48,194 nucleotides of DNA from a virus (taxonomy: Duplodnaviria > Caudoviricetes): the IMG/VR virus record IMGVR_UViG_3300022670_000218, positions 1-48,194 of that record. One strand, written 5' to 3'. The translations under genes and the position numbers were made by a program. The notes beneath the pieces are model-generated. The model saw only the letters and a list, made by a program, of their open reading frames with translations, searched no databases and was not told the DNA's origin. Shown in pieces: positions 1,517 to 42,266 of the stretch (positions are counted from its first letter, which is position 1; every line of letters starts with the position of its first letter).

Positions 1517-1518
1517 TT

Positions 1519-3116: not shown

Positions 3117-3120
3117 AATT

Positions 3121-4327: not shown

Positions 4328-4354
4328 ATTGTTAATAATTAAAATTAAAATAAA

Positions 4355-5272
4355 ATGAGCGAACAAATTGGGAACATACAGCTTGCAAGTGGAGCAATAT
4401 CCCTAAAAAACATTGTAAAAGCATTCATTGTTCCTACGTTCGATGATGCGGGAGTTAGAAACACTATTCCAGTGGGTCCGCTGACTAAAGCCGTGCTTGA
4501 TGCCAACCTTACGAAAGAGGATATTTCACAGAGGTGGCAACCGTTGCCTATCTTTAACGATGCGCTGTTACCAAAAGCCGACACTGTTTTTGATACAGCG
4601 GCTGATGGTACTAACTTTCGTGTAAGAGACGGTATTAGAAGTTTTACGGGCATGTTTAAAGGCATTGACTCGGTAATACTTAAAGGACTTGAAGTTGCTG
4701 AGTGCGGCCCTTCCGCTGACTGGTCTATCTTCTTAGTAGACAGATGCGGAATTGTAGTAACTGAGGAAGTAGACGCAGGGATAGGAAGGCCATTGCAAAT
4801 CACACCGGAAACATTTGATGCGATTTATCATTATATGACCAATGATACTGCAAACGATGTAACGATTCAGTTTGATTTCGGTAAGTTAATCAAGGACTCA
4901 AGGTTAACACCCGTGAATGTTGATGAAGATGCAGACATTTTGAAAGCTAAAGGTGTTGTATCCGTGAATGCTGTTATTTCGGCTATTTCTCTTACAGGGT
5001 ACACAATGACATGTACTTTCGATACTGGATTTCTTGGAGAGAAGGTTAAGTTTGTCGGAGCATTAGCCGCAGATTTTGAGCTTAACGAAATTAGCCCTGT
5101 ACCTGGATCTATTACAATTACTACGGTAGTAGAAACCCCTGCATTGAGCGGAATTTATGTCGTAGTTCATCCTGCGGCAACAGATCAGGATGTATTGGAG
5201 ACGACCAGTTCAGCGGCAGGAATTATTAAGAAATTCGAATTAAGACCAGTTAGACACATAGCAGTACCGTAA
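4355..5272 (+). CDS. major tail (tube) protein
   Basis: 305 aa between neck genes and tape measure; beta-rich C-terminal extension. Confidence 0.6.
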   Translation: MSEQIGNIQLASGAISLKNIVKAFIVPTFDDAGVRNTIPVGPLTKAVLDANLTKEDISQRWQPLPIFNDALLPKADTVFDTAADGTNFRVRDGIRSFTGMFKGIDSVILKGLEVAECGPSADWSIFLVDRCGIVVTEEVDAGIGRPLQITPETFDAIYHYMTNDTANDVTIQFDFGKLIKDSRLTPVNVDEDADILKAKGVVSVNAVISAISLTGYTMTCTFDTGFLGEKVKFVGALAADFELNEISPVPGSITITTVVETPALSGIYVVVHPAATDQDVLETTSSAAGIIKKFELRPVRHIAVP

Positions 5273-5273
5273 T

Positions 5274-5483
5274 ATGCAATTTATATATATATACAAAGGT
5301 AATCAATGCTCGTTCACTTTGGACGGCATTGAGCGCCTGAAGAAAAAAGAAGACTTCAAGGAAGTATTTCAGGGGAAAGTAGACGTCAATAAGGCCTGGA
5401 AAGACGTTCAAAAGGCCCGGGGGAATGAAGAAAAAGTAGACGTAGAGGTTAAGGTTTTGAAGGAGGAAGGGGGCGATAAATAA
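5274..5483 (+). CDS. small hypothetical tail-region protein
   Basis: 69 aa, K/E-rich, starts 2 nt after tail tube gene. Confidence 0.5.
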   Translation: MQFIYIYKGNQCSFTLDGIERLKKKEDFKEVFQGKVDVNKAWKDVQKARGNEEKVDVEVKVLKEEGGDK

Positions 5484-5494
5484 GCCCCTTTTTT
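5470..5494 (+). terminator. probable intrinsic terminator
   Basis: GGGGC-gataaataa-GCCCC followed by TTTTTT. Confidence 0.55.
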
Positions 5495-5497
5495 ATT

Positions 5498-5950
5498 ATG
5501 AATAGTTTTGAAAGGCTACAGCAAAAATTTAAGCAGTTCGATGTAAACAGGGTACTCCGAGAAGTATGGAGGATACCGGCAGTACAGCAAAAAATAACTG
5601 AACTTAATACAAAAAATCAGCTTTTCGAAAAGGGTGAAGATTCGCTAGGTGTTTCACTCGGCAATTACAGCCCTTTTACTATTCAGATAAAAGTACAGAA
5701 AGGGCAACGGACTGATCATATTACCCTTAGTGATACGGAAGAGTTTTACAACTCTTTTAAGGTTGTTCCGGTGCTTAAGGGATTTAGGATAGAGGCCGAT
5801 GCCGATAAGGGCGGGGGAGACGTGTTAACCGATCCACAGCCGGACGGATTCGGGCCTGATATAATTGGATTAAGTGAAGAGAGTTTACTCATATTGTGCG
5901 AATTTATACAACCTTTTTTTGCTATGGAGGCAAAGAAAGCACTATCATGA
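5498..5950 (+). CDS. putative tail completion / neck protein
   Basis: 150 aa; segment GNYSPFTIQIK..KGQRTDHITLSDT resembles phage virion morphogenesis proteins (recall). Confidence 0.45.
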   Translation: MNSFERLQQKFKQFDVNRVLREVWRIPAVQQKITELNTKNQLFEKGEDSLGVSLGNYSPFTIQIKVQKGQRTDHITLSDTEEFYNSFKVVPVLKGFRIEADADKGGGDVLTDPQPDGFGPDIIGLSEESLLILCEFIQPFFAMEAKKALS

Positions 5951-6428
5951 TTCTGTTGAATTCCTGTCTATTGGCGCGTGGTGGAAGGTTCACGAGGAAG
6001 GCGATTTTAAGTGGCTTCACAAAGACCTTATCGGGATGGAAGATAAAAGCGTTAAATCCTCATTTCTATGGAATGATATTTACAATTCTTACCTGAAGTA
6101 TGTGGGCTTATCAGAGGATTTCGACACGCTATTAAAGCTTAAGGTTGAATATCACGGGCTAAAATGTGATTTGATTTTGACCAAAAATCAATTTATAAGA
6201 AACTCCATGTCACAGATTGATTCGCAGATAAGATCGATTGAATTAAGTGTTAAAAACAGTGACAAAATAAGCAATGGCGAGAGCGTTAACATACTTGAGG
6301 ATGATCCAAACAGGGGTGAGATAGATATATGGAAAACATCAGTACTAAAATACCACGACATAGTAAAGGGTCATACTGAGAAAAGAAAAAGAGAGGTTTC
6401 ATTAATCAACAGTAAAAAAGCGGCTTAA
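5874..6428 (+). CDS. putative tail assembly chaperone-like protein (start uncertain, possibly TTG 5919)
   Basis: ORF directly before the tape measure with TAATG overlap. Confidence 0.45.
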   Translation: MKRVYSYCANLYNLFLLWRQRKHYHDSVEFLSIGAWWKVHEEGDFKWLHKDLIGMEDKSVKSSFLWNDIYNSYLKYVGLSEDFDTLLKLKVEYHGLKCDLILTKNQFIRNSMSQIDSQIRSIELSVKNSDKISNGESVNILEDDPNRGEIDIWKTSVLKYHDIVKGHTEKRKREVSLINSKKAA

Positions 6429-9400
6429 TGACATTTATATCAAATGATGACCTACAAGGTTTAACTAATTTAGAATCCAAACTTGACCTTATTAATCAGG
6501 GTCTTATAAAAATTATATCAAACAGTAAAAAGGTTACGGGTGCGCTTGATTTTAAAAAAACAGATGATTTTACAATTCTTGAAAAGGAAATTGACCAGGT
6601 TACCAGGGCAGAAATTGAGTTGATTGCCATTGAAAAGCAAAAAAAGCAACTATCTGTAGAGGTACAAAGAGCAGAAAAAGCAAGAATACAAACATTAAGA
6701 GAGAAGCAACGTCTCGATGTTCAGACTCAACGTGAAGCAGAAAAAGTAGCTAAAGCCACCGAAAAAGTACAGAGGGCACAGGAAAAAGCGAACTCAGCAT
6801 TTCTGAAGGCTACAAAACGGCTTAATGACATGCGTAGGGAGTACAAAGACCTTGTGTTTTCCGGTAAGGGCGCCACAAAATCAACCATTGCCTTAAGAAA
6901 TGAAATAAATAAATTAGACAGGTCTGTTAAGAAAGCCGAGGCAGACGTAGGACAATTTCAAAGAAGAGTAGGAGAGTACAAAAGTGCTCTTGCCGGATCA
7001 CTTGGAACGGTAGGGCAGTTTGCAACCGGTGCGGGAGCTATTGCGGCAGGTGTATTGCTTGCAGGCAAAGCCATTGGATCAGCTGTAAACATTATAAAAG
7101 ATTTCGAGCAGGCGGGAGCTAATTTAGCGGCTGTTCTTGGTGATTTAGCCACGGATGACAATATAGGAAAACTTGCAGATGACGCAAAAAGACTAGGCGC
7201 AAGTACTGCGTTCAGCGCAACAGAGGTAAGGGGATTGCAGACTGAGTTTGCAAAACTTGGATTCAGTCCGGAGGCCATAGTTAACGCCACAGAGGCTACG
7301 TTAAACCTAGCGGCAGCAACAGGTTCGGATCTTGCAGAAGCGGCCGCAATTGCAGGGGCTACACTTGGCGGGTTCGGATTAGAAGCGAGCGAAACACAGC
7401 GCGTTACTGATGTGATGGCTAAATCTTTCAGTACATCTGCACTGGATATTGAGAAGTTCAGGGAATCAATGAAGACAGCGGCACCTGCGGCAAAAGCTGT
7501 GGGTCTTAATGTTGAAACTACAACAGCATTACTAGGAACGTTAGCCAATGCGGGTATAAGCGGAAGTAAAGCCGGATCCAGTTTAGCAACATCTTTTATT
7601 AACCTTAACACAAAGGGACTAACCTTACAAAAAGGACTTGAAAAAGTAAGTAAAAGCACCAATAAATTACAGACTGCCGTAGATCTTGTCGGGAAAGAAG
7701 CGGCAAAAGCCTTTCTAATATTAGCAGACGGTACAGAGGCAACGGAATTATTAGAGCAGGGATTAAACAATGCAGGTGGTGCGGCCGAACGAATGGCAAA
7801 CGTACAGCTCGATACATTGGACGGGGCCATTAAAATACTCAATAGCTCATGGGAAGGGTTTATTTTAGCGCTTGATGACGTTGTGGATTCTAGTACAGTT
7901 ATGACTACCGCAGTGAAAGTTCTTAGCAATGTATTATCTACACTTAGCGGGCAGACAAAGGAGGTTAAGAAGTCGCAATCAGAATTAACAGACGAGAATT
8001 TAAGACTTCTGAAATCAACGAGGGAAAACACCCAGGAAAATGAGAAGCTTGCAAACAGATATGATGAACTAACCGGTAAGGTTGAGTTAAATGCAGATGA
8101 GAAAAATGAATTAATAAGCATAACAACCCAATTAATAGACAGATTCGGGGAGAGTGTCGTTGTTATAAATCAAGAAACAGGAGCCTTAGAAGTCAACATA
8201 AGAGCCGTAAGGAAAAAGATACTTGCGGACAAAGTTCTTGAAAGTGAAACTACTAAAAATTTAATTGTAGAAAAAGCCAGATTAGAAACAGCAATTGAAT
8301 TAGCTAAAAACGCACAATCACAAGTACAGGCATTAAGAGAAAGTATTGATATCAGTGAGTTAGATTTTGGGGCCGGACGTATATTTGAAGTTATAGACGC
8401 TATTGAAAAAGGGCCGGCAGCTGTAGCTACTGCCGCCGCTAAAATAACAGGTGAACTAGCGGCAAGCACATCCGGCAGTCTGAATGAATTAAAGGCTTTT
8501 GAAAAAATATTAGAGCTTATTGCTCCTCAAATAAACAGATTATCCGGAGCGGTATTTAGTTTAAATACAAACCAGAAAGATTTAATTAAAATTAATGAAG
8601 AATTTAAAGCCCTTGGTATTGACATAGACGAGTTTCTTGAAAATGAAACCGAAGCATTTAATTCGAATACAAGTGCCGTTAACAGTAATAAAAAAGCCAG
8701 AAGAGAATTAACGGGATTAATAGAGCTTCAGCAGAAAGCGTTAAAAGATCTTCAGGATCAAAGAAAACAAACAACAAGTGAGGAGGATATAGCAAGATTA
8801 AGTTCTGAAATAAGAGAAGCACAGGCTGAATTAAAAAGACTCCAAAACCTAGGATTAGAAGCATTGGAGGAAGTGCCTGATAGATTAGAGGTAACTCTGG
8901 ACATAGGTGCAAATTTAGAACCGTTCAAGTCGGATATATTTGATTTTGTAACGGATGCGAATAAAGTAATAGCAGACGCCAACAAGGAAGCCGAGGAAGA
9001 TGTGCGTAAATCATTTGAAAGAAGACTTTCTATTATAGGCAAGTCCTTGGATGAGGCCGCGCAAGCTCAACGTGAAGCGCACAAAGAAAGATTAAATGAG
9101 TTTGATGAAGAAATCAAAGCAAGCAGAGACCTGCAAAAATCACTCGCAGAAGACGCAAGACGCGGTGTCGCTAGTGCTAAAAACAATCTTGTGTTCGCAC
9201 GACAGGAAGAGCGTAAAGCGCAACTTGACAGAGCAGAAGAAGTTAAACGGCAAAAGAGAATTGAGGAAGGTTTAGTATTCTTAAAACTGTTAGCAAGCAA
9301 TGCCAGTGACCCAAACGACAAGAACCCTGTGCTTACCACTATTTCAGAATTTGCGGCCGCTAAACTAGCCATAGCGGCATTGACAGGATTCTTTACAGGC

Positions 9401-9820
9401 GCTGACAATGTAGCTGAATCATTAGGAAAGCCAACCGTGTCAGGACGGGACGGATACGCCATACGTGTAGACGGCAATGAAATGATTTTAAACCCTGATG
9501 AAACCGCAGAATTAAGGAGCAAAGGAATAACGACAAGGGACGGTATTTTTGATGTTATAGAGCAGAATGAGCAGTTTAAACTGCGTCAGTTGGTGGATGT
9601 TGATAAAACACATCAAGCCTTGCACGTTACCAATATGTATGAAAATAATGGGCAGATGTTGAGTAAAATGGATGACTTAATTGAATCAAATAATAACGCC
9701 TATAAGAAAATTAAGCAGACTAACTGGTCTTTGGATGCGCTAGGTAGACTAATGAAAGACTATCAGGACGGAAACGGAAAAAGAACTATTGATATTTACG
9801 AAAAAGGCAGTATATTTTAA
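6428..9820 (+). CDS. tail tape measure protein (TP901-type core)
   Basis: 1130 aa coiled-coil, Ala-rich; core motifs LGASTAFSATEV..LAKLGF, LNLAAATGSDLAEAA, AERMANVQLDTLDG. Confidence 0.92.
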   Translation: MTFISNDDLQGLTNLESKLDLINQGLIKIISNSKKVTGALDFKKTDDFTILEKEIDQVTRAEIELIAIEKQKKQLSVEVQRAEKARIQTLREKQRLDVQTQREAEKVAKATEKVQRAQEKANSAFLKATKRLNDMRREYKDLVFSGKGATKSTIALRNEINKLDRSVKKAEADVGQFQRRVGEYKSALAGSLGTVGQFATGAGAIAAGVLLAGKAIGSAVNIIKDFEQAGANLAAVLGDLATDDNIGKLADDAKRLGASTAFSATEVRGLQTEFAKLGFSPEAIVNATEATLNLAAATGSDLAEAAAIAGATLGGFGLEASETQRVTDVMAKSFSTSALDIEKFRESMKTAAPAAKAVGLNVETTTALLGTLANAGISGSKAGSSLATSFINLNTKGLTLQKGLEKVSKSTNKLQTAVDLVGKEAAKAFLILADGTEATELLEQGLNNAGGAAERMANVQLDTLDGAIKILNSSWEGFILALDDVVDSSTVMTTAVKVLSNVLSTLSGQTKEVKKSQSELTDENLRLLKSTRENTQENEKLANRYDELTGKVELNADEKNELISITTQLIDRFGESVVVINQETGALEVNIRAVRKKILADKVLESETTKNLIVEKARLETAIELAKNAQSQVQALRESIDISELDFGAGRIFEVIDAIEKGPAAVATAAAKITGELAASTSGSLNELKAFEKILELIAPQINRLSGAVFSLNTNQKDLIKINEEFKALGIDIDEFLENETEAFNSNTSAVNSNKKARRELTGLIELQQKALKDLQDQRKQTTSEEDIARLSSEIREAQAELKRLQNLGLEALEEVPDRLEVTLDIGANLEPFKSDIFDFVTDANKVIADANKEAEEDVRKSFERRLSIIGKSLDEAAQAQREAHKERLNEFDEEIKASRDLQKSLAEDARRGVASAKNNLVFARQEERKAQLDRAEEVKRQKRIEEGLVFLKLLASNASDPNDKNPVLTTISEFAAAKLAIAALTGFFTGADNVAESLGKPTVSGRDGYAIRVDGNEMILNPDETAELRSKGITTRDGIFDVIEQNEQFKLRQLVDVDKTHQALHVTNMYENNGQMLSKMDDLIESNNNAYKKIKQTNWSLDALGRLMKDYQDGNGKRTIDIYEKGSIF

Positions 9821-11682
9821 TGGGACTGACTAATTTAATATTCAAGCTTAACGGCAAAACAGGACACGAGCCGGACAACTGGGAGAGTATAAAGCTGTCT
9901 GCATCATTTGTGTTTACGGACACCAATGATAACCGGATATCTGAGTCTGTGCAACCTAGTATAAATACTGATTTGTTTGTGTTCTCCAATGAGTCCGCAC
10001 GGGAATTTATTAAATACAGAAAAGCGGGGTTAACTGGAGGGCCGGGATTATTCGAAGGTATGCCATTTAGCATAGAGGCAAGTAACGACACGACAATAAA
10101 GGCTTTTAACGGATTCTTTGATTTTACCAAGGGTTACAGGGAAATAAGCCCCGTAGAGGTAGAGTGCAGAGTGAAAAAACTTGACGGTCTAAATTCATTC
10201 AACGATATTGCGCGGGTCAATACGTTTGAATTCCTTGAAAGTGAAGGGGTGTTTAAATTAAGTGACTACATAAACATTCCTTTTATAGTCGAGCCTTTGG
10301 ATGCAGAGGCTCAGATTGCAATGCTTGAACTTACTTTGGTTATGCTGATAATTGAAGGGGCAAGGCTTGTAAAGGAGATATTAAAAGATATAGGTATTAT
10401 TGTAGGTCTGGCAAGCACTGTAACCGGAATACCTGGATCTCTTGTATTAGCAGTACTTACACTTATACTTGACATTGCTTTTCTTATAGTTCTTGTATTC
10501 CAAATTGGAAAACTTGTAATAAGAATGGTTGCACTATTAGCACCTCCTGTGCAATTCAACAGGGGAATGTTTATTAAGGATCTAATTGAGAAAGCTGTTA
10601 ATCATTTTGGGTATGATTTTGAAACCGGGATAGATGAATTATCCATTGTTGCATACATGCCCGCAAAAGGATCTGGTGAGACAAAAATATTCAGGGGTGT
10701 ACCAAAGATAGGAGAACCTGGACAGACTGTTGCAAGACTTATTAATATAGCCCTTAAGATTGGCAACGCAAGGATTGGAATAATTGATAATACCGTACAT
10801 CTAAGAACCGATGCAGATCCGTTTTGGATTAAAAACAGTACGTACCAATTACCGGATGTAGGCAATATTGACGCGGACGCAATAACGTTGCAAAGCGAGG
10901 AATTTGTGCCTAATACGGATGAAATGTTTGGCTCAACAATAATCAGCCTCACGTCCGATCAGTCAGACCAGTGGACGCTATCAGATGATGCCGGAATAGA
11001 TTCACAGGCTATTAGGACTCCGAAATTCGTTGTTGATAAAACCGGAAAGAAGGTTTTGATAAAAGGATTGCAGGAAATCGTAATTCCTTGCGCTCCTGCA
11101 AGCCGTAAGTCAACACTTAATGAAGCTGAGCAACTTCTTTCTCAAATACAGAAGAAATTAGCCCCACTGATGGAGCAGGTTAATAAGATATACGGAAATC
11201 AATTGGGAGCCAATTTAAGCAATGTTACGGGTATACCACCATTTGTTCAGACCGTGGTTAATTACCTTAGCAATGACCGTATAGGAGCGGTAAGAATTAG
11301 TTCAAAGAGTTACAGCACACCAAAACTCGTTGTACTGGAAGACGTTTCTGAAACTTTAAAACCTGATTATAGGATTCCTCAGAACCATAGGGATTTATTC
11401 AGCGCATTAACCCTTTATAACAAGTATTATATAAGCGATTCATTCGCTAATGTTCATCCTGGAACAAGACAAAGAAGACTATTCAGAGGCAGGACTATAC
11501 CGTTTGTATTTTCTGATTTTTTAAAAGTAATAGAAAATTCTTATTTTGCGACAAATAAGGGGCAACGTGCTAAGATTGAGAAGTTAGAATGGGAGTTAGA
11601 CAAGGATGTTGCAACTGTTGACTATTGGATTGAAGAGCAGTATACGAACAATATAAAGGAACTTGTAATCAGCACGACATGA
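9820..11682 (+). CDS. tail tip / baseplate hub-like protein
   Basis: 620 aa directly after tape measure; long internal hydrophobic stretch. Confidence 0.55.
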   Translation: MGLTNLIFKLNGKTGHEPDNWESIKLSASFVFTDTNDNRISESVQPSINTDLFVFSNESAREFIKYRKAGLTGGPGLFEGMPFSIEASNDTTIKAFNGFFDFTKGYREISPVEVECRVKKLDGLNSFNDIARVNTFEFLESEGVFKLSDYINIPFIVEPLDAEAQIAMLELTLVMLIIEGARLVKEILKDIGIIVGLASTVTGIPGSLVLAVLTLILDIAFLIVLVFQIGKLVIRMVALLAPPVQFNRGMFIKDLIEKAVNHFGYDFETGIDELSIVAYMPAKGSGETKIFRGVPKIGEPGQTVARLINIALKIGNARIGIIDNTVHLRTDADPFWIKNSTYQLPDVGNIDADAITLQSEEFVPNTDEMFGSTIISLTSDQSDQWTLSDDAGIDSQAIRTPKFVVDKTGKKVLIKGLQEIVIPCAPASRKSTLNEAEQLLSQIQKKLAPLMEQVNKIYGNQLGANLSNVTGIPPFVQTVVNYLSNDRIGAVRISSKSYSTPKLVVLEDVSETLKPDYRIPQNHRDLFSALTLYNKYYISDSFANVHPGTRQRRLFRGRTIPFVFSDFLKVIENSYFATNKGQRAKIEKLEWELDKDVATVDYWIEEQYTNNIKELVISTT

Positions 11683-11894
11683 TAAATGATATTGATAAAT
11701 TCGGGGAAGCATTTAAAAAAGCGTTTGATTGTGCAAATCCATTTATTAACCAAATGGATGAAAAAAACGAAATACACAATCTTTTAAAAAACGGCATTGA
11801 AGCAATGACAAAAAATGATTTAGAAGGAATAGAGGCGTTTGAAAAAAACATAAATAAACTGGGTGATAAAATGAATAATAAGTACAGTCAATAA
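11679..11894 (+). CDS. hypothetical protein
   Basis: 71 aa with ATGA and TAATG overlaps. Confidence 0.5.
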   Translation: MINDIDKFGEAFKKAFDCANPFINQMDEKNEIHNLLKNGIEAMTKNDLEGIEAFEKNINKLGDKMNNKYSQ

Positions 11895-12832
11895 TGGCTA
11901 TAACAAAACAATTAGGAGACAGCAACGCACATATTGCGAACGGACTAACGACCAAACAGGACGTTAGTGTAATTACGCGGTCTGATTTGGATGAACTGAT
12001 ACCTAAATCCTTTGATTTAAGCCTATTTCAGTGTGATTATGTTGAAACTGTGTTCTCTGAGTTTGGTGGAGTTGTAGTTGATCAGTACAAGAATGATAAA
12101 ACGGATTTGCTGTTTGGGCTTACTTTAATCACGGACACCGTAGTAATTAAATTATTTAAAGACGGTATTTTTCTTCCTTTGGCAACATTGAACAATAATC
12201 TATACGGTACGTTTTTTCCACCTTCATTTTTCCCCGATCAGTTAAAAGTAGGTTTTCTTGCCGATTGGAATTTTATATTTGATGATTTTGGCCCGGGTTT
12301 ATATCATTTTACCGCAGAACGTGTTATTATTGGAGAAACAAGCACTAAAATAAGCCATGATTTCAGGTTAAAACTCTTCAGGGAAGAAGTTGCAGACAAC
12401 ACAATCAGGGTTGTTACAAAGCAGACCGGAGTGATTGAAGGGGGATTTAATTATGAAGGATTCGAATGGGAGGGACACATCAGGCTGTACGGGTTCTTTG
12501 GCAATCCTGAATACGAATTAATTGACGAGAGCCTAATTACTACAGGACGCGTTAAGACGCAGATTCAGATAAAAGTTAAAACAGTTTACACACTGAATTT
12601 AAAACTTCACCCTAGCAGTATAATGGTTCCCTTTATTAAGGATCGATTATTAGCTAATGAAATGACTATAACAGGATACGGACTATTTGATTATCTTGAA
12701 CGATACAAAGGAATTCCTGTTTATCCAGAGGGAATACCGGAATCAAATTACTTTGAAAGAAACAGCAACGGGAAGTTTGTTATAGCATTTACCGACAAGA
12801 AACAGACGCCAATTAAAAGAAGATTCACATAA
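11894..12832 (+). CDS. minor tail protein (putative)
   Basis: 312 aa in tail operon. Confidence 0.5.
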   Translation: MAITKQLGDSNAHIANGLTTKQDVSVITRSDLDELIPKSFDLSLFQCDYVETVFSEFGGVVVDQYKNDKTDLLFGLTLITDTVVIKLFKDGIFLPLATLNNNLYGTFFPPSFFPDQLKVGFLADWNFIFDDFGPGLYHFTAERVIIGETSTKISHDFRLKLFREEVADNTIRVVTKQTGVIEGGFNYEGFEWEGHIRLYGFFGNPEYELIDESLITTGRVKTQIQIKVKTVYTLNLKLHPSSIMVPFIKDRLLANEMTITGYGLFDYLERYKGIPVYPEGIPESNYFERNSNGKFVIAFTDKKQTPIKRRFT

Positions 12833-15800
12833 TGCCTACTTTATTAGAATCCATAGTATTTAGTTACGAGTTCAGGGGGTTTAGCACCGGAGGGGCCGAC
12901 ACGACTACCGTATTAAAAGCCAATGCGGGTGAAAAAGTGCGCGCCAATTTACAGTTCAGGGTACAGATTGAAAGCAAGGCGAATGTAGGAAACGGTGACG
13001 AGTTTTTAGTACAGACAATCAGCGGTGTAACATCTATTACCGCAAATACTGCTGATTTTGTTGCAGACGGATGGAGGGTAGGCGATGTATTTACTTTTAC
13101 GGATAATTCGGGGGGAGGTATAGGCGCGGCACCTGGTCAGATTATAACGCTTGTATCCGGTAATTTCATGGAAATAACATTGCTCGCTCCATTGGTTCCG
13201 AATACTTATGTTAATGTTGACATGCAGCTGACGACTGAATTGGACACGCTAAGGTATCAATATAATTTCACCCAAATATCAGACCGTAGTGATCTAATAC
13301 AGCAGATGTTGAAGTCGATTCAAGGGTTTGAATATAAAGGATTGACAGATTTAGCTTTTCATGCCGGCGTTGCTTTTGTTCCAGATCTTGGAAATACAGG
13401 TTCATCGCAGGCTAAAAGGAGAGCTGTATCTGCTAATTTTGTACAGTTTTTTGAGGTTGAGCATGATTTTATTATTATTCCTTCAGGAAAGGAAGATCAG
13501 TTAAATAACTTACAGACAAATAATATACCCGACCCGTACAGGACTGAAACCATACTATACAATCAGATTATAGACATAGGGGTGGGTAATGATAATTCAA
13601 GACTCCGTACACTTCCAATTAAGCGAAATACCACCGACTTTGTAGGTTGGAGAAATGAAAATTTTGACGGAGGGGTAAATGACTATGTGGTTGACTCTGT
13701 AAGCTATCTTAATGTTGCCACTAACGGGCCATTGGATGTAATAGAAGCCAAGGCAGTGACGAGGGTAACGGCAGTAATAAGCAGGGTTTCCGGCACATTC
13801 ACAATAGGAGACAGTACTATAGTTCACCATAGTTACTTACCTGTAGAATCCGCATATCAGTCTACGGTAGAGGATTATCAGACTGCATGGATTTACGAGA
13901 GTTTAAAAAATGATATTGACGCGGGGGCAACTAGCGGGACAGTTATAACAAACTATGAGGCCACTCTTGCGGCTAACATATTAACTGTTGTTTTTGACAT
14001 CCAATATACAGTGGCCCAATTGGCCCTTATATTTGATGACGGGGCTTATGATTTATACATTTCATTGGCAGATAATACCTCTTTGAATGCAGAAGAAAGC
14101 AACCGCGTAGCCCTTAATATAGATGCCGACAGGTTAACAAAGAATCCGGACATTGCCGGACTTGTGAGCAATGAGGTGATGCACTTTTACAACCACCCTC
14201 TTGACTTTGTGGACGGGGTAAGCACAGGGTTTACAAGCCTTCAAACATGGATTGAGGAAGGAATTATGCTATCAGGATTCTTTTTTATTGAAGGTTCAGG
14301 ACGGGCCAATGTAGTAGAGAGCCTATCAATAGAATTGATAGCAGAAGACACGGTAACGGGTGAAATATTTGTTATTAAATCAGATACCGTACCCACAATT
14401 ACACAGACATTTATTCAGGAAGGAAGCGATACCGTGCAGGTATTAGAACTAGAAAGCGAAAGAGGTTTTTTACTTCCCCCAAATGATCAATTTAACAACC
14501 TGAATATAGAAAATGGAATATTCGCCGCCGGAGCACAGGAATATAAATACCAGATTGGGTTAAAAATAACCTGGCAGGATTGGGAGAAATTACAGAGTGC
14601 GCCTGGTAAATTTTTCGATACATCCAAGCTGAACAACGGATTAAACAAGAAGTCTGATAATTATGATGACTCTATATTGACTTCACAAATTAAATACAGG
14701 CAGGTTCTCAGGGTAAACAAAGGCGGAATTATTACTACCTATAATGCTTTAACTCCTGTATTCAGGGTTTTTGATTACGAAAAAGACATAAATGTAACAC
14801 CTGATTTTACGGGGGAGGTCACTATCAAGGATAAAAACGGAAACCCTATTTCTGATAATTTAATTCAAAATGAAAACAGCGAAGTTACCGTCACGTTTGA
14901 TGACGGAGAAACAAAAATAAGTCCAACTAATTTCGAAGCTGTAGTAAGGATACAGGTAAAACAACAAGGAACTGAAGACAGCATTCATGAGATTAGTTCA
15001 TTACGGGGTGTTTTATCGGGCGATATACTTAAACCGCTTTCAGGCGAGATCCAATTGCAGAAATCTATAGTTTCCGGCAATTACACTGTTAAATGTTTAA
15101 CTGACGGATTACAGTTATCAACAGCAGATCAAAGCATTAGTTGCCGTCTTTATAACGGAATTAAAGAATCACTCTTATTTGATGGCACTAATGAACGGGT
15201 AGACCATGGTTCATTTAGCGGCCTTACGTTTGCTCGAACCGAAGCATTCTCTTATGAATATTGGATACATTTAAACGCAACTGGTATATTGCAAATAGTT
15301 GCCTCTAATCAAGTTCCTTTGCCAAGTCCTTCAGGATTTTTTACTGCGGTGACTTCAGGAGATAAGATTATATTTTATTTACAGGGAGACGAGGCTCCGG
15401 TGGCTAGGATACAGGTTGAAACTACTTCTGCAACGCTATCAGTCTCTACGTGGACGCATGTTGCTGTTACTAAATCAACGGCAACGGCGGCAAGCAGTGT
15501 AAAAATATACATTGACGGGATCTCGGTGAGCTTAACGACCACTTTTGATAGTTTGGGTGTTGACCCTGCTGTTGACGACCTGACGGTAGGAGCCAGAGAA
15601 AGGACAGTATTTCAAAACTTCCTTGATGCGAACCTTAAGGGACTGGCGTTTTGGGACAAAGAGTTAAGTGCGGCAGAGGTAACTGAATCGTATAATAGCG
15701 GGTGTCCTCTTAACTTAAATTCACATAGCGCATCATCTAATTTGGTGAGTTGGTTCCCTATAGACGGTGATACAATTGCAGAAATAAGAGACCAGGCATC

Positions 15801-15876
15801 AGGAGGAACCAACGATGGAACGCCTGTAAATATGGATTCAACGAACATTACAAAAGAAGCACCATCACCATGTTAA
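12832..15876 (+). CDS. large tail protein with C-terminal LamG/concanavalin-A-like domain (putative receptor-binding)
   Basis: 1014 aa; SLLFDGTNERVD, WTHVAVT, KIYIDG, LAFWDKELSAAEV are LamG-like hallmarks. Confidence 0.75.
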   Translation: MPTLLESIVFSYEFRGFSTGGADTTTVLKANAGEKVRANLQFRVQIESKANVGNGDEFLVQTISGVTSITANTADFVADGWRVGDVFTFTDNSGGGIGAAPGQIITLVSGNFMEITLLAPLVPNTYVNVDMQLTTELDTLRYQYNFTQISDRSDLIQQMLKSIQGFEYKGLTDLAFHAGVAFVPDLGNTGSSQAKRRAVSANFVQFFEVEHDFIIIPSGKEDQLNNLQTNNIPDPYRTETILYNQIIDIGVGNDNSRLRTLPIKRNTTDFVGWRNENFDGGVNDYVVDSVSYLNVATNGPLDVIEAKAVTRVTAVISRVSGTFTIGDSTIVHHSYLPVESAYQSTVEDYQTAWIYESLKNDIDAGATSGTVITNYEATLAANILTVVFDIQYTVAQLALIFDDGAYDLYISLADNTSLNAEESNRVALNIDADRLTKNPDIAGLVSNEVMHFYNHPLDFVDGVSTGFTSLQTWIEEGIMLSGFFFIEGSGRANVVESLSIELIAEDTVTGEIFVIKSDTVPTITQTFIQEGSDTVQVLELESERGFLLPPNDQFNNLNIENGIFAAGAQEYKYQIGLKITWQDWEKLQSAPGKFFDTSKLNNGLNKKSDNYDDSILTSQIKYRQVLRVNKGGIITTYNALTPVFRVFDYEKDINVTPDFTGEVTIKDKNGNPISDNLIQNENSEVTVTFDDGETKISPTNFEAVVRIQVKQQGTEDSIHEISSLRGVLSGDILKPLSGEIQLQKSIVSGNYTVKCLTDGLQLSTADQSISCRLYNGIKESLLFDGTNERVDHGSFSGLTFARTEAFSYEYWIHLNATGILQIVASNQVPLPSPSGFFTAVTSGDKIIFYLQGDEAPVARIQVETTSATLSVSTWTHVAVTKSTATAASSVKIYIDGISVSLTTTFDSLGVDPAVDDLTVGARERTVFQNFLDANLKGLAFWDKELSAAEVTESYNSGCPLNLNSHSASSNLVSWFPIDGDTIAEIRDQASGGTNDGTPVNMDSTNITKEAPSPC

Positions 15877-16151
15877 GAAGACGCTTTATAATGGACAAAT
15901 CGCAGGCTCAAAATGAGGACTATCTGGACGCGCTAAAGATGTGCATAGGTCTTGATTCTACGCAACGTCTTAGCATTCCTAAAACCCAACTGTATATTAA
16001 AACAACTCAAAAGGAGATAGACATAATGCTTGAAAAATATCCTGAGTATACATTGGATGAAATAATGGCGGCAACTTTTACCGTAGAGCAGACTTATGAA
16101 GGAATTAAAATCATTTTAATCGGCCCAGATTGGCAAACAGAAGGAATATAA
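15870..16151 (+). CDS. hypothetical protein
   Basis: 93 aa after tail protein. Confidence 0.5.
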   Translation: MLRRRFIMDKSQAQNEDYLDALKMCIGLDSTQRLSIPKTQLYIKTTQKEIDIMLEKYPEYTLDEIMAATFTVEQTYEGIKIILIGPDWQTEGI

Positions 16152-16152
16152 T

Positions 16153-16449
16153 ATGGACGTAACTGAAATACTGGCAATTGGAGGAACATCAACAACGGTT
16201 GCAGGAGGCACGCTTTGGGGATTTGTTAAAATGTGGTACAAGCTTAATGAGGGGGTTACTCTTCTTAAGCAGAGAATTCACTATCTGGAATCACAGTGCA
16301 AGACATTTAAGGGTGAAATAGACAAGATCGAAACGGATATAAACAACAAACACGACGTATTATCGGAAAAATTCAACCATCTTGAGCTTAAGATTGAGCA
16401 AAATAAATCTGAGATCATCAGGGAGATTCACGAATTAATGCGTAAATGA
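16153..16449 (+). CDS. holin-like / membrane-anchored coiled-coil protein
   Basis: Hydrophobic N-terminus then coiled coil; lysis-module position. Confidence 0.4.
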   Translation: MDVTEILAIGGTSTTVAGGTLWGFVKMWYKLNEGVTLLKQRIHYLESQCKTFKGEIDKIETDINNKHDVLSEKFNHLELKIEQNKSEIIREIHELMRK

Positions 16450-16679
16450 TAAGTGAAATTAACGTAATTCCACAAGAGCAGTTTAACCTGTTCGACATCG
16501 CCTATAAACACGGTGGAAGGGATCGCACAATGATGCAGAAGCGTACTGAATTAATCCAGTACCTAATGATAAAAGACGGTTCTTCGATGAACAGGGCCGA
16601 TGCAGATTTTGAAAAGATTATGTCCGTAGAACAGGATTATACCGATTTTTTCAAAGAATTCCTTGAAAACTACCACTGA
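16446..16679 (+). CDS. hypothetical protein
   Basis: 77 aa, last ORF of the late operon. Confidence 0.5.
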   Translation: MISEINVIPQEQFNLFDIAYKHGGRDRTMMQKRTELIQYLMIKDGSSMNRADADFEKIMSVEQDYTDFFKEFLENYH

Positions 16680-16693
16680 TTTAACTATATTCG
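16662..16693 (+). promoter_or_regulatory. Bacteroidota-type promoter for putative sRNA
   Basis: CTTG (16662) N20 TATATTCG (16686), one mismatch in each box. Confidence 0.5.
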
Positions 16694-16698
16694 TATGG

Positions 16699-16766
16699 CA
16701 AATCAATCTTAGCATTGTATTTCATAGTTGTAAAAAAGCCCGTTCATTAATTTGGATGGGCTTTTT
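16699..16766 (+). ncRNA. putative small RNA antisense to early-gene start codons
   Basis: Lies between promoter and terminator; TTGTATTTCATAGTTGTA is complementary to many AACTATGAA start contexts; 5' end estimated. Confidence 0.5.
16732..16766. terminator. bidirectional intrinsic terminator
   Basis: AAAAAAGCCCGTTCA-ttaatt-TGGATGGGCTTTTT. Confidence 0.8.
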
Positions 16767-16832
16767 GCGTTATCTGCAAATCTTTTTGTTGAAATAAATT
16801 AGAAATATACACTACAACAGTAACCTTTTAAC

Positions 16833-16840
16833 TACATTTG
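16833..16840 (+). promoter_or_regulatory. early promoter -7 box
   Basis: TACATTTG matches TAnnTTTG upstream of first early ORF. Confidence 0.6.
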
Positions 16841-16878
16841 TCGTATACAATAATAAGAGACAACAAAAATTTATCACC

Positions 16879-17064
16879 ATGAAAACTGAAACTAGATTTA
16901 ACGAAGTATTTGAAAAATTAAACAAAAAGTTTAAAAGAGCAACTGAAGAAGGTAAAGACTCTTTAGTAAGCGAATTAAAGAGTTGGTGTCGATCTAATAA
17001 GGCTGATGAAACCGGAAAATTAGACGCTATCCATTGCTTCTTAGCTGATAATAATATTTTTTAA
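16879..17064 (+). CDS. hypothetical protein
   Basis: 61 aa, first ORF after early promoter. Confidence 0.55.
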   Translation: MKTETRFNEVFEKLNKKFKRATEEGKDSLVSELKSWCRSNKADETGKLDAIHCFLADNNIF

Positions 17065-17084
17065 AATAAAATAATTAACAAAAA

Positions 17085-17273
17085 ATGACAACATCAGACA
17101 GGATAAGAATGGGTTGCTTAATATCCAGAATATCCCAAAAAGAATTAGCTGAAAAAACAGGATATCATCCTGGATCAGTTCGGGACGCTATAAGCAAGAA
17201 CAAATTTTCGTTCAAAATGCTTGTTAAGATTGAGGAAATACTTGGCGAGGATTTAGGATCTAAAGAATTATAA
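17085..17273 (+). CDS. Cro/XRE-family HTH regulator
   Basis: ISQKELAEKTGYHPGSVRDAI HTH and MLVKIEEILG helix; 62 aa. Confidence 0.75.
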   Translation: MTTSDRIRMGCLISRISQKELAEKTGYHPGSVRDAISKNKFSFKMLVKIEEILGEDLGSKEL

Positions 17274-17293
17274 AATCAACTAAAAATAAAACT

Positions 17294-17650
17294 ATGAAAC
17301 ACAACTTTGAAATAACGGAAAAACTCCCGATTGAGTTTAAAAAGAAATGGGTTGAAGCCCTTAGAAGTGGAAAATATAAACAGGGAAAGGGTGCGTTACA
17401 TAGGCGTAACTGCTTTTGTTGTCTTGGAGTTGTATGTATGTTATTTGACATAAGCCCAACTCAATTGGGAGAAGCAGGTTATATTCAAAATAGAGATGAC
17501 AAGTATACAGTTGATGCTGATGTTTCGATGATTCCGGATTTAATCAAGGGTGATAATATAGAAAATGAAATTGTTACATTTATAAGCAATAGCAATGATT
17601 CTGGTTCAACATTCGAAGAAATAGCAGACTGGATTGAAATTAACTTATAA
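17294..17650 (+). CDS. hypothetical phage protein
   Basis: KKWVEALRSGKYKQGKG..CCLGV..NDSG.TFEEIADWIE, a recurring phage family pattern (recall). Confidence 0.65.
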   Translation: MKHNFEITEKLPIEFKKKWVEALRSGKYKQGKGALHRRNCFCCLGVVCMLFDISPTQLGEAGYIQNRDDKYTVDADVSMIPDLIKGDNIENEIVTFISNSNDSGSTFEEIADWIEINL

Positions 17651-17662
17651 CTAAAAATAACT

Positions 17663-17911
17663 ATGAAATACAAAATTATCAGATTCGAAAACGGCAGTGT
17701 ATCCTACTGCCTTATGAGTGAAAAGGTATCAGGAGATGTTATAGGTATCGCGTCAACACACGAACAAGCACAGGCAATGGTTGAAACCAACATGTTCAGC
17801 GTAAAGGTAAGACTAGCGGCATATTTACACGGCCTCAAATTATGGGACTATTTGGACAGGGAAAGAGCCAAAGCAATCGCCAAAGACGTAAATTTTGCAC
17901 TCGTAAATTAA
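17663..17911 (+). CDS. hypothetical protein
   Basis: 82 aa, AACT-ATG start context. Confidence 0.55.
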   Translation: MKYKIIRFENGSVSYCLMSEKVSGDVIGIASTHEQAQAMVETNMFSVKVRLAAYLHGLKLWDYLDRERAKAIAKDVNFALVN

Positions 17912-21729: not shown

Positions 21730-21745
21730 CTTAAATACTATAACT

Positions 21746-22036
21746 ATGAAACAATTGAATCTAACGAAAAAGCAACTACGATTAGTCGGATTTACTCGAA
21801 AGGTAGTTAAGGCGAGTCAGCCAGACGGGACTAAAAAGCCAAGAACAATTTACCGAATATCAATAATAAACGGATCAATTTATTGCAATGTGGATGAACC
21901 TGTTTACAAATGGTATATTGCTATGAGTGTAGGAGATGCATCAAATCATATTTGTATGGATATCTATTGTGCTTCTCAAATGTATGGTGTATTGGACGCT
22001 ATGGGGGCTAAGAATAATCTAATTATGGGATTATAA
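21746..22036 (+). CDS. hypothetical protein
   Basis: ATG 21746 in AACT-ATG context. Confidence 0.55.
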   Translation: MKQLNLTKKQLRLVGFTRKVVKASQPDGTKKPRTIYRISIINGSIYCNVDEPVYKWYIAMSVGDASNHICMDIYCASQMYGVLDAMGAKNNLIMGL

Positions 22037-25195: not shown

Positions 25196-25205
25196 TAACA
25201 CGACT

Positions 25206-25496
25206 ATGACAACACAGGAATTAAAAGACAGGTGGTATAAGATCCGAATAGAAGAAAGTAAAAAAGCAAGAACCGGAACTGGGGGAGCTGTCTGTGTAGA
25301 CGATGAGTTTGAATCAGCCGTTAGGTTTGCCAATGAATTTTACCAGAGCAAAATAGACGCTGTTACGAAAGAGGTTTCAAAAGAAGCTGACAGACGCTAT
25401 CCTATTGAGTCCGAAGGATTCCTTTCTTATAATTCGAGTGCCAATGAGGGTTTTACCGAATGTTTTAATTGGTTAAAAGAAAAACTAAAGCAGTAA
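25206..25496 (+). CDS. hypothetical protein (paralogue of next gene)
   Basis: Shares SKIDAVT and EKLKQ* with 25501-25782. Confidence 0.55.
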   Translation: MTTQELKDRWYKIRIEESKKARTGTGGAVCVDDEFESAVRFANEFYQSKIDAVTKEVSKEADRRYPIESEGFLSYNSSANEGFTECFNWLKEKLKQ

Positions 25497-25789
25497 GACT
25501 ATGAAAACCACACACGAAGTATTTAAGGAAGTATTAAAAGAACTTGGTTTTGACGGGTTTAAACCGGATCAGATGACTAATTCTGATTACTGGTTATGTA
25601 GCAACACGGCGATGAAGAGATTCGCAGAAGCCTACCACAATAGCAAAATAGACGCTGTTACGGAAGAAGAGATACATGTGGCCTGTGAACAGAGGAAATA
25701 CAGTATTACATACAACTCAGGACATCCAGAAGATGTTTTTTACATGGGTGTTAAATGGCGTGAAGAAAAACTAAAGCAGTAAGACTATG
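25347..25789 (+). repeat. two direct-repeat pairs (21 bp and 27 bp)
   Basis: AGCAAAATAGACGCTGTTACG at 25347 and 25642; AAGAAAAACTAAAGCAGTAAGACTATG at 25477 and 25763. Confidence 0.9.
25501..25782 (+). CDS. hypothetical protein (paralogue of previous gene)
   Basis: 93 aa. Confidence 0.55.
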   Translation: MKTTHEVFKEVLKELGFDGFKPDQMTNSDYWLCSNTAMKRFAEAYHNSKIDAVTEEEIHVACEQRKYSITYNSGHPEDVFYMGVKWREEKLKQ

Positions 25790-26681: not shown

Positions 26682-26924
26682 ATGGGCAAATGTGATAAAG
26701 GGTATCAGGGGGAGTGCTGTTGCGGATGTGTAAACAGAATGAAACTGCATAGACATTGCTGTGTTGATAAAAAGGAAAGTGAGGATGGTTGCATTTGCTC
26801 TCAACAGGTAGAAATAAATAATGATCCAATGTGGGTATGTATTATTGATATTAAAATGGGAGGTGACAGAGCTAATTTAAGTCATGAGCACGGGTGTTGT
26901 GAGTTGTGGGAAAGTAAGAAATAA
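26682..26924 (+). CDS. Cys-rich hypothetical protein
   Basis: ATG 26682; many Cys residues. Confidence 0.5.
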   Translation: MGKCDKGYQGECCCGCVNRMKLHRHCCVDKKESEDGCICSQQVEINNDPMWVCIIDIKMGGDRANLSHEHGCCELWESKK

Positions 26925-26971
26925 CAGCCTTTAAGGTATAACAAAAGTAAGTTTAAATAAATACTACAACT

Positions 26972-27115
26972 ATGAAGAAATACGAATCAATTGTTTGGAT
27001 TCCAGAAGAGGAAACACTTGGACATTTATTAAACAACTTAGAATTTAAGTACACTAAAATATATCAAATGTTTATGGAACTCCCCGGACTATACGTAATA
27101 ATACTAGAACTATGA
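26972..27115 (+). CDS. 47-aa hypothetical protein (not in ORF track)
   Basis: MKKYESIVWIPEE..., TACAACT-ATG context, ATGA overlap with next gene. Confidence 0.5.
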   Translation: MKKYESIVWIPEEETLGHLLNNLEFKYTKIYQMFMELPGLYVIILEL

Positions 27116-27495
27116 AAACACTAATATACTATTCTCTTCAAGACAAAGATAACGACAGAGACCCTAAAGAAACTAACTTCGAATCAGGATTCAAGGAAAT
27201 TGCAAACGCATTAGCTATACAGATAGCGTATGGAAAATCCTCTGAATTCTACAATCAAAACATAGTGTATGTATGTGGCTTTGATAAAAAGAATAACGAC
27301 TTAGAATTACCTGTATTCGTAGGCAATGAAAACATACTAAACGACATGGTTTATATCTGTCAGAATGAAATGTATGATTTATTGTTTGACTCTATATTTG
27401 TACAGGAGTACCGTTCTTATGAGACTGCTTACGAAGTGGCCTTAATGATGAAAGAGTCTTCTATGATGTGTTATAAAGCGGATGAAATAGAGTAA
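27112..27495 (+). CDS. hypothetical protein
   Basis: 127 aa. Confidence 0.55.
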   Translation: MKTLIYYSLQDKDNDRDPKETNFESGFKEIANALAIQIAYGKSSEFYNQNIVYVCGFDKKNNDLELPVFVGNENILNDMVYICQNEMYDLLFDSIFVQEYRSYETAYEVALMMKESSMMCYKADEIE

Positions 27496-27525
27496 ATAAA
27501 TCAATAGAACCTTAACAATACAACT

Positions 27526-27756
27526 ATGCAGACACACAGTGCAAAAGCTAAATACCATCCAGACAACCGTCCAGTGCGCGTCTTTGTATGTCCTTGTGGA
27601 GGGAATAACATTATGATGGCCGGACAACCAAAAGATAATCCGACATTAAAAGAAAGAAGGGAAATTGGAGAACTAATTACAATGGGTTGTACAATAATGA
27701 ACATAACCATTAAGGAATTCAGAAAAATAGATTTCACATTTTGCGACAAGCATTAA
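27526..27756 (+). CDS. hypothetical protein
   Basis: 76 aa. Confidence 0.5.
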   Translation: MQTHSAKAKYHPDNRPVRVFVCPCGGNNIMMAGQPKDNPTLKERREIGELITMGCTIMNITIKEFRKIDFTFCDKH

Positions 27757-27778
27757 ATAAACCTTAACAAAGAACATT

Positions 27779-27961
27779 ATGACGAGTGAGAAATTTGTAC
27801 GGGGTCAATACAAAGATGCTCTTGTAATTAAAAGTTCAACGCCATACATTTACGATTGTAAGGAATCATTCATGGGCAAAGTAATTGCAACCGGTAAAAA
27901 CCCATCAAACGCATGGACTAACGCAAGGAAGAAAGTGTATAAAAAACTATTTGAAATATAA
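27779..27961 (+). CDS. hypothetical protein
   Basis: 60 aa. Confidence 0.5.
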   Translation: MTSEKFVRGQYKDALVIKSSTPYIYDCKESFMGKVIATGKNPSNAWTNARKKVYKKLFEI

Positions 27962-27972
27962 AATATACAACT

Positions 27973-28173
27973 ATGAAAGAGACAACCTTAAAAGTAACCA
28001 ATTGCATAGACTGTATATTTTGTGGCATGGGAGGATGGGAAGGAGAGGTAAACGAATGTTTGGCGGTAAGTAAACAAATTCAGGAGAAGGGCGCTAAATC
28101 ACATGAAATACCTAAAATAATTCCAACATGGTGCCCTCTAAAGAATGGTAAAATTACGGTAGAATTAAAATAA
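27973..28173 (+). CDS. small Cys-rich protein
   Basis: CIDCIFC..C..IPTWCPL pattern. Confidence 0.55.
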   Translation: MKETTLKVTNCIDCIFCGMGGWEGEVNECLAVSKQIQEKGAKSHEIPKIIPTWCPLKNGKITVELK

Positions 28174-28189
28174 ACTTAACTATACAGCT

Positions 28190-28468
28190 ATGACAAAGAA
28201 TAGAGCAATTTATAAATTCATGTTAAAGATACAGGACGAGCAACAAGTTGAATTACCTGCATACAGCGAGGTGTTAAAAGTTAATGAACAAAATGGAAAC
28301 ATGTGCTTATGGGCTATTGTAGATGTAAATGAGAAAACTATTGTTCCGTTGAAAATAAATATTTACGGAACAGGCAGCACTATAGGAGAGCAAATGTTCA
28401 AGCATAATTATTTAGACTCGGTATTAATGAATGATGGTTTGGTTTGGCATATATTCTACGGATTTTGA
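28190..28468 (+). CDS. conserved hypothetical phage protein
   Basis: IYKF..LP..EVL.V..Q..LWAIVD..IYGTG..VWHIF pattern. Confidence 0.6.
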   Translation: MTKNRAIYKFMLKIQDEQQVELPAYSEVLKVNEQNGNMCLWAIVDVNEKTIVPLKINIYGTGSTIGEQMFKHNYLDSVLMNDGLVWHIFYGF

Positions 28469-28494
28469 AATTAAATAAACCTTAATACAATAAC

Positions 28495-28746
28495 ATGAAA
28501 GCACAGGAGAAAGCAAAAGAACTGGTAGAGAAGTTTAAGGGTATAACAACATGTCCTACTGATTATTCTAATGAGCCGGTTCCTGATGACCATACAGATG
28601 AAGCCAAAGAATGCGCTATATTATGCTGTGGTCAAATAATTGAAAACACCATAATTGATACTAATCTTGACAGCCTCTACATGTTTACAAAAGAATACTG
28701 GGAAGATGTAAAAATAGAAATATATGAAATTAAACCCAGTAATTAA
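28495..28746 (+). CDS. hypothetical protein
   Basis: KAKELVEKF..AKECAI..YWEDVK.EI pattern. Confidence 0.55.
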   Translation: MKAQEKAKELVEKFKGITTCPTDYSNEPVPDDHTDEAKECAILCCGQIIENTIIDTNLDSLYMFTKEYWEDVKIEIYEIKPSN

Positions 28747-28756
28747 CAATAGAACG

Positions 28757-32220: not shown

Positions 32221-32250
32221 AGACTGTGTTTTTGGTTTGCAAACATAGAA

Positions 32251-41697: not shown

Positions 41698-41729
41698 CCC
41701 ATGAAACACCTAATCAAAGTAAAGCAACT

Positions 41730-42104
41730 ATGAAGAGTACGGAATTAAGAATAGGGAATAATGTTGATGTAACCATAGAAGAACTTTCTTTCACTGATGG
41801 TAAAATAACTAAATTGTGTGTTGAGCATGTTTATGTTAATGGTGTAAAAATGAGGTATGAACATTTACGACCTACAACGCTAATAAAGGAATGGTGGCCT
41901 AAATTTGGTTATGAATCAATACAGGAGTTTGCGTGTGATTTGTCCGAGAAAGCGGAAAACCATTTAGGAGTGGATATTGATTTTTACAATGAGTGTGGAA
42001 TCGACCTCATTGAGAGTCTACCAATTCATAAGATACAGAATTTATTTTATGAACTTACCGGAGAAGAATTAGCCCTAATTGATTTAAAGAACAAACAACT
42101 ATGA
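41730..42104 (+). CDS. hypothetical phage protein
   Basis: MKSTELRIGN..HKIQNLFYELTGEEL pattern. Confidence 0.6.
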   Translation: MKSTELRIGNNVDVTIEELSFTDGKITKLCVEHVYVNGVKMRYEHLRPTTLIKEWWPKFGYESIQEFACDLSEKAENHLGVDIDFYNECGIDLIESLPIHKIQNLFYELTGEELALIDLKNKQL

Positions 42105-42266
42105 AGAGATTAAGGAAAGAGTTAGAAACATATATGATTCTATACCTCCAATCGAAACCTAATACATATGAAAAACAAAGATGGGAAAGTGATATTAATA
42201 TGATTATTAAGGCAATAAATACGCTGAAAGAAACTGAACCTATTTGGAAACGATTATTTTAGAGCC

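Follow-up and report, generated by a model that had tools for sequence, protein, structure and literature searches.

A candidate small RNA at the late/early junction of a probable Bacteroidota phage, predicted to pair across start codons of the phage's own early genes

The stretch of DNA analyzed here (the window; 48,194 nucleotides) is a near-complete 48-kb tailed phage. Its host likely belongs to the Bacteroidota, judging from promoter boxes and capsid relatives: the capsid protein weakly matches that of an Elizabethkingia phage, and one relative (64% in the capsid) is named from Winogradskyella. Capsid, tail and tape-measure genes occupy positions 437-16679; small early and middle genes, including those for RecT, a resolvase, NinB and an HNH protein, occupy 16879-43647, and terminase and portal genes follow. 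The late operon is closed by a compact unit (~16698-16766) consisting of a host-type promoter, a free stretch containing TTTCATAGT and a strong terminator, and one such unit is found within the whole window (Table 1). The last late gene ends within the promoter, so that the unit doubles as the 3' terminus of the late operon. Within one gene the window is interrupted and lacks ~60 codons present in the closest related phage (G001); its last ~160 bases (48033-48194) are an inverted copy of ~47160-47300 that cuts the gene continuing at 1-417, and this inverted end is likely an assembly artefact. Elsewhere, a tRNA-like element with a long insert (32098-32220, plus strand; Rfam 35.2 bits, missed by ARAGORN) ends a region of ~1 kb without long open reading frames (31242-32316) and is followed by a hairpin. 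Only two minus-strand genes have a family match, a Bro-N gene of 247 aa and a gene for a small HTH protein (36074-37076).

Table 1. Features of the junction unit and its predicted targets, in coordinates of the window
Feature	Position	Strand	Remarks
Last gene of the late block	16446..16679	+	77 aa, no family; 3' end contains the -33 box
-33-like box CTTG	16662..16665	+	consensus TTTG (PMC7366714)
Antisense frame	16681..16725	-	14 codons, MKYNAKIDLPYEYS; not conserved
-7 box TATATTCG	16686..16693	+	consensus TAnnTTTG; identical in relative G001
Predicted RNA	16698..16766	+	~69 nt; start position estimated
Seed region	16715..16732	+	core TTTCATAGT at 16720-16728; anti-AUG CAT at 16723-16725
Intrinsic terminator hairpin	16732..16766	+	-19 kcal/mol; A tract 5', U tract 3'
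-7 box TACATTTG	16833..16840	+	just downstream of the unit, likely early promoter; same box in G001
Best predicted target, 82-aa gene, start 17663	17659..17673	+	15 nt; duplex -22.8 kcal/mol
Predicted target, 118-aa gene, start 17294	17290..17299	+	10 nt
Predicted target, gene start 21746	21742..21751	+	10 nt; G001 orthologue likewise has an ACTATG start
Weak predicted target, gene start 25501	25498..25506	+	9 nt; reads GACTATG, not AACTATG
Predicted target, gene start 26972	26965..26976	+	12 nt
Predicted target, gene start 27112	27108..27117	+	10 nt
Predicted target, gene start 27526	27519..27528	+	10 nt, all upstream of or including the ATG
Predicted target, gene start 27973	27966..27978	+	13 nt
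Predicted target, gene start 41730	41725..41734	+	10 nt
Predicted target, gene start 42101	42095..42105	+	11 nt
Further ACTATG start, ATG 25206	25203..25209	+	7 perfect pairs; doubtful target
Further ACTATG starts	32544 and 35089		6 pairs each; doubtful targets

The original prediction described a near-consensus promoter and a strong terminator enclosing ~70 nt, and this architecture holds. The two promoter boxes are separated by a 20-nt spacer and each carries one mismatch to the consensus given in PMC7366714, by which the promoter is predicted to be of the main-sigma type. The RNA start was placed 4-5 nt past the -7 box, modelled on Rfam-matched FopS copies. Folding predicts a 5' part that is only weakly structured, with an unpaired probability of 0.4-0.9 for the core, and the fold of 16690-16775 is unusually stable (z = -3.27, equalled by 0 of 200 shuffles); the hairpin at 16732-16766 is not among the calls of a generic terminator scan. 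Its flanking A and U tracts could allow the terminator to act in both directions, and the second -7 box downstream likely opens the early block. In shuffles of the free region, the 8-letter core arises 193 times in 100,000. A second TTCAT within the terminator, at the site of G001's second seed, was discarded as a candidate seed, being buried in the stem and matching just two structural starts over 7 nt. A blastn search with 16400-17300 against 50,697 phage records returned short chance matches only; the exact 16-letter seed occurs at 48 loci in IMG/VR, which were inspected by eye and excluded from all counts.

That the seed is aimed at start codons was part of the original prediction and is supported; overlooked there was that its core is the published seed of the Bacteroides RNAs GibS and FopS. 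As far as the GibS and FopS-10 primers define it, TTTCATAGT at 16720-16728 is the core found in the 5' ends of these two RNAs, and the FopS R1 seed core is present in the unit. With FopS (RF04319; PMC11697453) the unit shares a host-type promoter, a length of ~70 nt, the core TTTCATAGT, pairing at starts, and a free 5' part followed by an intrinsic terminator, these last two being present by prediction. According to PMC11697453, FopS-10 acts by pairing at the translation start, and in vitro it blocks translation; the protein RbpB binds the 5' part of FopS and GibS and counteracts repression, and one Bacteroides phage carries a FopS copy. In FopS, however, the seed lies at the very 5' end with an extended R1' and a shared tail, whereas the window core begins ~22 nt in and the tail is missing; FopS has many paralogues per genome and the window unit is a single copy; and FopS acts on host mRNAs, whereas the predicted targets of the window RNA are phage genes. 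An Rfam search of 16500-16950 gave no RF04319 match even at E up to 10 (family cut-off 56 bits), while FopS positive controls scored 59-81 bits. GibS of B. thetaiotaomicron (RF04182; PMC7366714) has the core in common and likewise pairs across start codons of trans-encoded mRNAs, but it is ~140 nt long (142-position model), about twice the length of the window RNA, and has a second seed, R2, and another promoter type; Rfam gave no GibS match for the unit. Bacteroidota mRNAs are described in PMC7366714 as being without Shine-Dalgarno sites. Taken on its sequence features, the window unit appears to work like FopS and GibS, whose core it shares, but is not a member of either family by Rfam score, seed position and copy number.

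Phage RNAs that repress genes of their own phage include P4 CI, lambda OOP and P22 sar, each acting on one operon. P1 c4 (PMC8546580) also represses its own phage's genes in trans, but acts on an antirepressor, whereas the window RNA would reach ten or more scattered genes. Rfam found no window match to the c4-type, P4 CI, lambda OOP or P22 sar families. A search of titles and abstract openings, with subscription papers mostly outside its range, yielded no Bacteroidota phage RNA aimed at the phage's own start codons, and the accessible part of bioRxiv 10.64898/2026.09.22.753630 held nothing relevant.

All ten start-codon matches proposed originally were found in place at 9-15 nt, one of them differing in its letters (25498). 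Predicted duplex energies range from -11 to -23 kcal/mol, calculated without an opening penalty. Twelve of the 13 genes with an ACTATG start encode at most 130 aa, and nearly all are without a known family. In the window phage no match falls on the two genes that open the early block, on RecT or on the packaging genes (terminase), although the G001 RNA does match its own RecT start. Complements of 11-12 nt to other segments of the RNA lie away from starts as well (11568, 23581, 32312, 35916, 48003), and the signal thus lies in the register on the AUG and not in length alone. On the minus strand, a -7-like box at 17671-17678, with no -33 box, directly precedes the complement of the best target, probably by chance.

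The frequency of this start context was compared across genome sets using one heuristic gene caller, on which all starts rest; for the early/late, permutation, flank-shuffle, ranking, complement and merging tests, a false window start at 17842 was dropped and those at 17663 and 17917 were added manually. ACTATG is found at 35 of 185 called ATG starts (19%) in the window phage and G001, against 39/1083 in 18 capsid relatives, 19/415 in 14 RecT relatives, 43/929 in 14 other core-bearing viral records and 21/743 in samples of eight cellular Bacteroidota genomes, control shares of 3-5% from which the pair differs at p values of 9e-8 to 6e-13. The highest single controls were Salibacter (7/82) and two RecT loci (3/23 and 4/23), followed by a fragment of a closer relative (4/36) and G024 (3/28). 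Among genes of at most 130 aa the counts are 12/53 in the window and 18/65 in G001, versus 14/583, 13/245 and 2/233 in controls. Within the window phage, the context is carried by 13 of 61 early and middle genes and by none of the 23 structural and packaging genes (p = 0.016), in agreement with the original statement that structural genes lack AACTATG starts; counting free-standing starts alone leaves 9/40 early versus 0/10 late, which are small numbers. The corresponding figures in G001 are 21/69 early and 1/20 late. The earlier caveat that AACTATG is common in Bacteroidota is weaker than feared, as it is found at 12 of 743 cellular starts (1.6%) compared to 9 of 84 plus-strand ATG starts in the window (8 by the caller, plus 17663 added by hand). 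Complements of at least 10 nt occur at 9/91 own starts in the window and 13/95 in G001, against 12/1790 background starts for each, which supports the proposed enrichment at own early starts.

G001, a complete genome whose capsid is 90% identical, is the closest phage and is largely collinear with the window. Its unit lies at the same junction, directly past the stop codon of the final late gene: a -7 box identical to that of the window is followed by an inserted hairpin, then by TTTCATAGT, and then by a terminator with a second TTTCATAGT in its loop; the core is present twice, with flanks that differ between the copies and from those of the window. Folding predicts both copies to lie in hairpin loops, although for the first copy this holds for the ATAGTC part alone. 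Among 23 capsid relatives found, of which 19 were examined (several being fragments lacking the junction), and among the best 80 of 213 RecT loci, the unit was found in G001 only. The clade's unit is carried by only two genomes, the window phage and G001; a third close relative (P0005, 47-kb, capsid 76%) lay outside the DNA comparison. The long tail protein as a query led to no loci directly, and the 93-aa gene adjoining the junction led to G001 only in viral contigs and to nothing in metagenomes. Three metagenomic loci matching a clade-specific pattern were rejected as chance matches in eukaryote-looking DNA with no terminator.

The altered flanks allow seeds and start contexts to be compared between the two phages. 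The window RNA extends its match with CAACTATG, which 5 of the 13 ACTATG starts of the window carry and none of the 22 in G001; the first G001 seed extends with GACTATG, found at 14 of the 22 G001 starts versus 3 of the 13 in the window, and the second matches AGAACTATGAAAC at two starts. The commonest G001 leader, AAGACTATG (10/22), has an A at -5 that neither seed copy pairs. One orthologous pair, 41730 in the window and 15117 in G001 (52% identical), has CAACTATG and AGACTATG, respectively, tracking the two RNAs at position -4; of 7 orthologous pairs in which ACTATG occurs at a start, only 3 have it in both phages. When genome labels are permuted, each RNA proves to fit the starts of its own phage better than those of the other (p 0.002-0.005). 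With its flanks shuffled, the window RNA gives p = 0.002 against window starts and 0.51 against those of G001; each single G001 seed copy gives p = 0.18, which is not significant. Ranked among 43 rows of natural core-bearing RNAs, the window RNA is 1st by match length on its own starts, and by energy 4th on its own and 21st on G001's, three unrelated RNAs surpassing it on window starts; the G001 RNA is 1st on its own starts and 13th on the window's. Of the five CAACTATG starts, three are part of a local family of leader repeats and the remaining two are neighbors; this family comprises leaders of small genes at 26900-28800, in which 16 nt are repeated exactly (27752 and 28470). When neighboring targets are merged, the significance of the covariation is lost (p = 0.11 and 0.13). 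The co-change of seed flanks and start contexts across the two phages is suggestive, not established.

To place the unit among other core-bearing RNAs, we used a pattern of -7 box, 20-50 nt, core, 25-55 nt and CTTTTT, with loci passing at a hairpin of -10 kcal/mol or better. The viral scan gave 108 loci, of which 65 pass (17 of 53 sequence clusters); a permuted control seed gave 49 loci, of which one passes (1 of 33 clusters). The cellular scan gave at least 120 loci from 18 of 64 parts, with 22 passing; 13 of the 17 titled passing loci are from Bacteroidota, from Bacteroides to Saprospiraceae and Flavobacteriales. A looser pattern, run on ten cellular genomes, gave no surplus over the same pattern reversed and served solely as a way into those genomes. 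By Rfam, four of 18 cellular loci are FopS proper and five more score 26-32 bits (cut-off 56), and 20 viral loci gave no FopS or GibS match. Cellular units outside Bacteroidaceae (L323, L311, L320, L337, L355, L316 and L303), none of which reaches the FopS cut-off, apparently belong to an uncatalogued wider class. Another locus (L346), titled Alysiella (not Bacteroidota), has a seed flank resembling that of the window phage and a hairpin of -27 kcal/mol, and the Salibacter sample (G047), with the top ACTATG share among sampled cells (7/82), contains several core-plus-hairpin stretches.

An excess of matches at own starts is weak in two other core-bearing viral records (G033 and G027; p ~0.01, uncorrected) and missing from 12 of 14. 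Self-targeting as a general rule of phage-borne units is rejected on these counts; self-matching marks the pair of the window phage and G001, not the class. The unit follows endolysin and exonuclease genes in G033 (the same order, by likeness, in G035), lies shortly past a holin gene in G029 and G039, and is found elsewhere in other records. A 27-member family of core-bearing RNAs from phages of ~30-34 kb (L129, L133, L135 and 24 more; G033-G035) sits where the lysis end gives way to small early genes, with little own-start excess; a further unit (L427:1642-3231, in G026) immediately precedes a phage groEL gene. Tyrosine integrases were found in 0 of 11 core-bearing viral records, some of them fragments, and in 8 of the 13 capsid relatives searched that lack the unit.

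We consider it reasonably probable that the unit encodes a ~69-nt RNA that pairs over 9-15 bases across about ten early starts, with a timed shut-off as the likely role. Transcription by way of the host's main sigma factor would provide the RNA as soon as infection begins; late transcripts, ending at the same terminator, would carry the seed as well. With the seed made from the outset and added to by late transcripts, the RNA would build up over time. By analogy to GibS and FopS, pairing over -3 to +6 would keep the ribosome from loading; accessory early proteins would appear in a short burst and afterwards be damped, and structural genes would be spared for want of such an address. Of the original reading, the sRNA gene, the start-codon seed and the enrichment among own early genes are supported and a relative with changed flanks has been added, whereas a role in place of a repressor has become the weaker option.

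A possible but unlikely alternative is that the RNA is real and mainly aimed at host mRNAs, as FopS is, including those of outer-membrane transporters that might serve as receptor, the early genes simply sharing the host start context. The core is common to host RNAs across Bacteroidota, FopS targets are enriched in SusC-like transporters, and most other phage-borne units have no own-start excess. Four of the five cellular starts matched over at least 10 nt come from Salibacter alone, so that some hosts are richer in the start context than others. Against this, the context is all but missing from late genes (0/23 in the window, 1/20 in G001), and the window RNA ranks 27th of 43 by energy on the 743 cellular starts. 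The core is preceded by A in the window RNA and by T in 31 of 39 other units, which suggests that the window RNA has left the host-type match.

We regard as improbable a role in immunity, in which early genes would be held down in a carrier or plasmid-like state, or superinfection by kin blocked, as with P1 c4. The host-type promoter is independent of phage protein and each RNA fits its own phage best; proviral relatives G008 and G009 have an integrase ~16-20 kb downstream of the capsid gene, roughly at the unit's place, and the Bro-N and small HTH genes lie on the minus strand. However, no tyrosine integrase (PF00589) was found in either phage, compared to 8 of the 13 capsid relatives searched, no CI-type repressor among the 83 and 71 ORFs scanned, and no serine integrase or ParA among the window ORFs scanned. 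With no integrase or CI-type repressor found, a timed shut-off fits better than lysogenic immunity. Lysis, moreover, may not be blocked, given the unmatched first early genes, RecT and terminase.

A comparably doubtful reading holds that there is no regulatory RNA, and that leader repeats spread by recombination, an inverted leader copy having come to lie in a 3' UTR beside an ordinary terminator. Leader repeats do exist, the 15-nt match at 17659-17673 is less than 1 kb away and could be the source, and the merged covariation is not significant. Yet G001 keeps the core twice with changed flanks, together with the -7 box; promoter-core-terminator units pass at 65/108 loci versus 1/49 for the control seed, and the core is infrequent in shuffles of the free region. 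Very improbable is a decoy role, in which the RNA would draw off an RbpB-like RNA-binding protein of the host or compete with host RNAs that have the same seed; such a role accords with the binding of RbpB to the 5' part of FopS and GibS and its counteraction of repression (PMC11697453), but leaves the matches to own early starts and the non-host-type flanks unexplained. Hardly credible is that the functional element is the minus-strand minigene raised as a caveat originally: the frame MKYNAKIDLPYEYS is real and open with a good start context, but the antisense frames at the two G001 copies give MKV and MKPGA, so that the 14-codon peptide is not kept, the frame varies from 3-99 codons in 39 other units with no common peptide beyond MK, no minus-strand -7 box lies within 16300-17677, a hairpin stands directly upstream of the minigene ATG, and we judge the frame a by-product of the seed, which largely removes the caveat.

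Judging from the pattern scans, core-bearing RNAs seem to extend well past Bacteroidaceae, the described range of FopS, and to be mostly missed by Rfam. More tentatively, the anti-start-codon RNA of Bacteroidota may have been made into a programmable regulon switch in some phages, with one 70-nt RNA replacing a protein regulator in timing or in immunity against kin. Held with the same reserve is the proposal that the start context of early genes serves as the address in such a switch and that the RNA seed is rewritten along with it. The start-masking Bacteroidota RNAs compared here act on host metabolic genes, from which use by a phage on its own genes would differ. If the proposal is true, the system would represent an RNA-only timing layer in a phage group without known regulators and would offer a small-scale way to learn which positions flanking the AUG have to be covered by an RNA.
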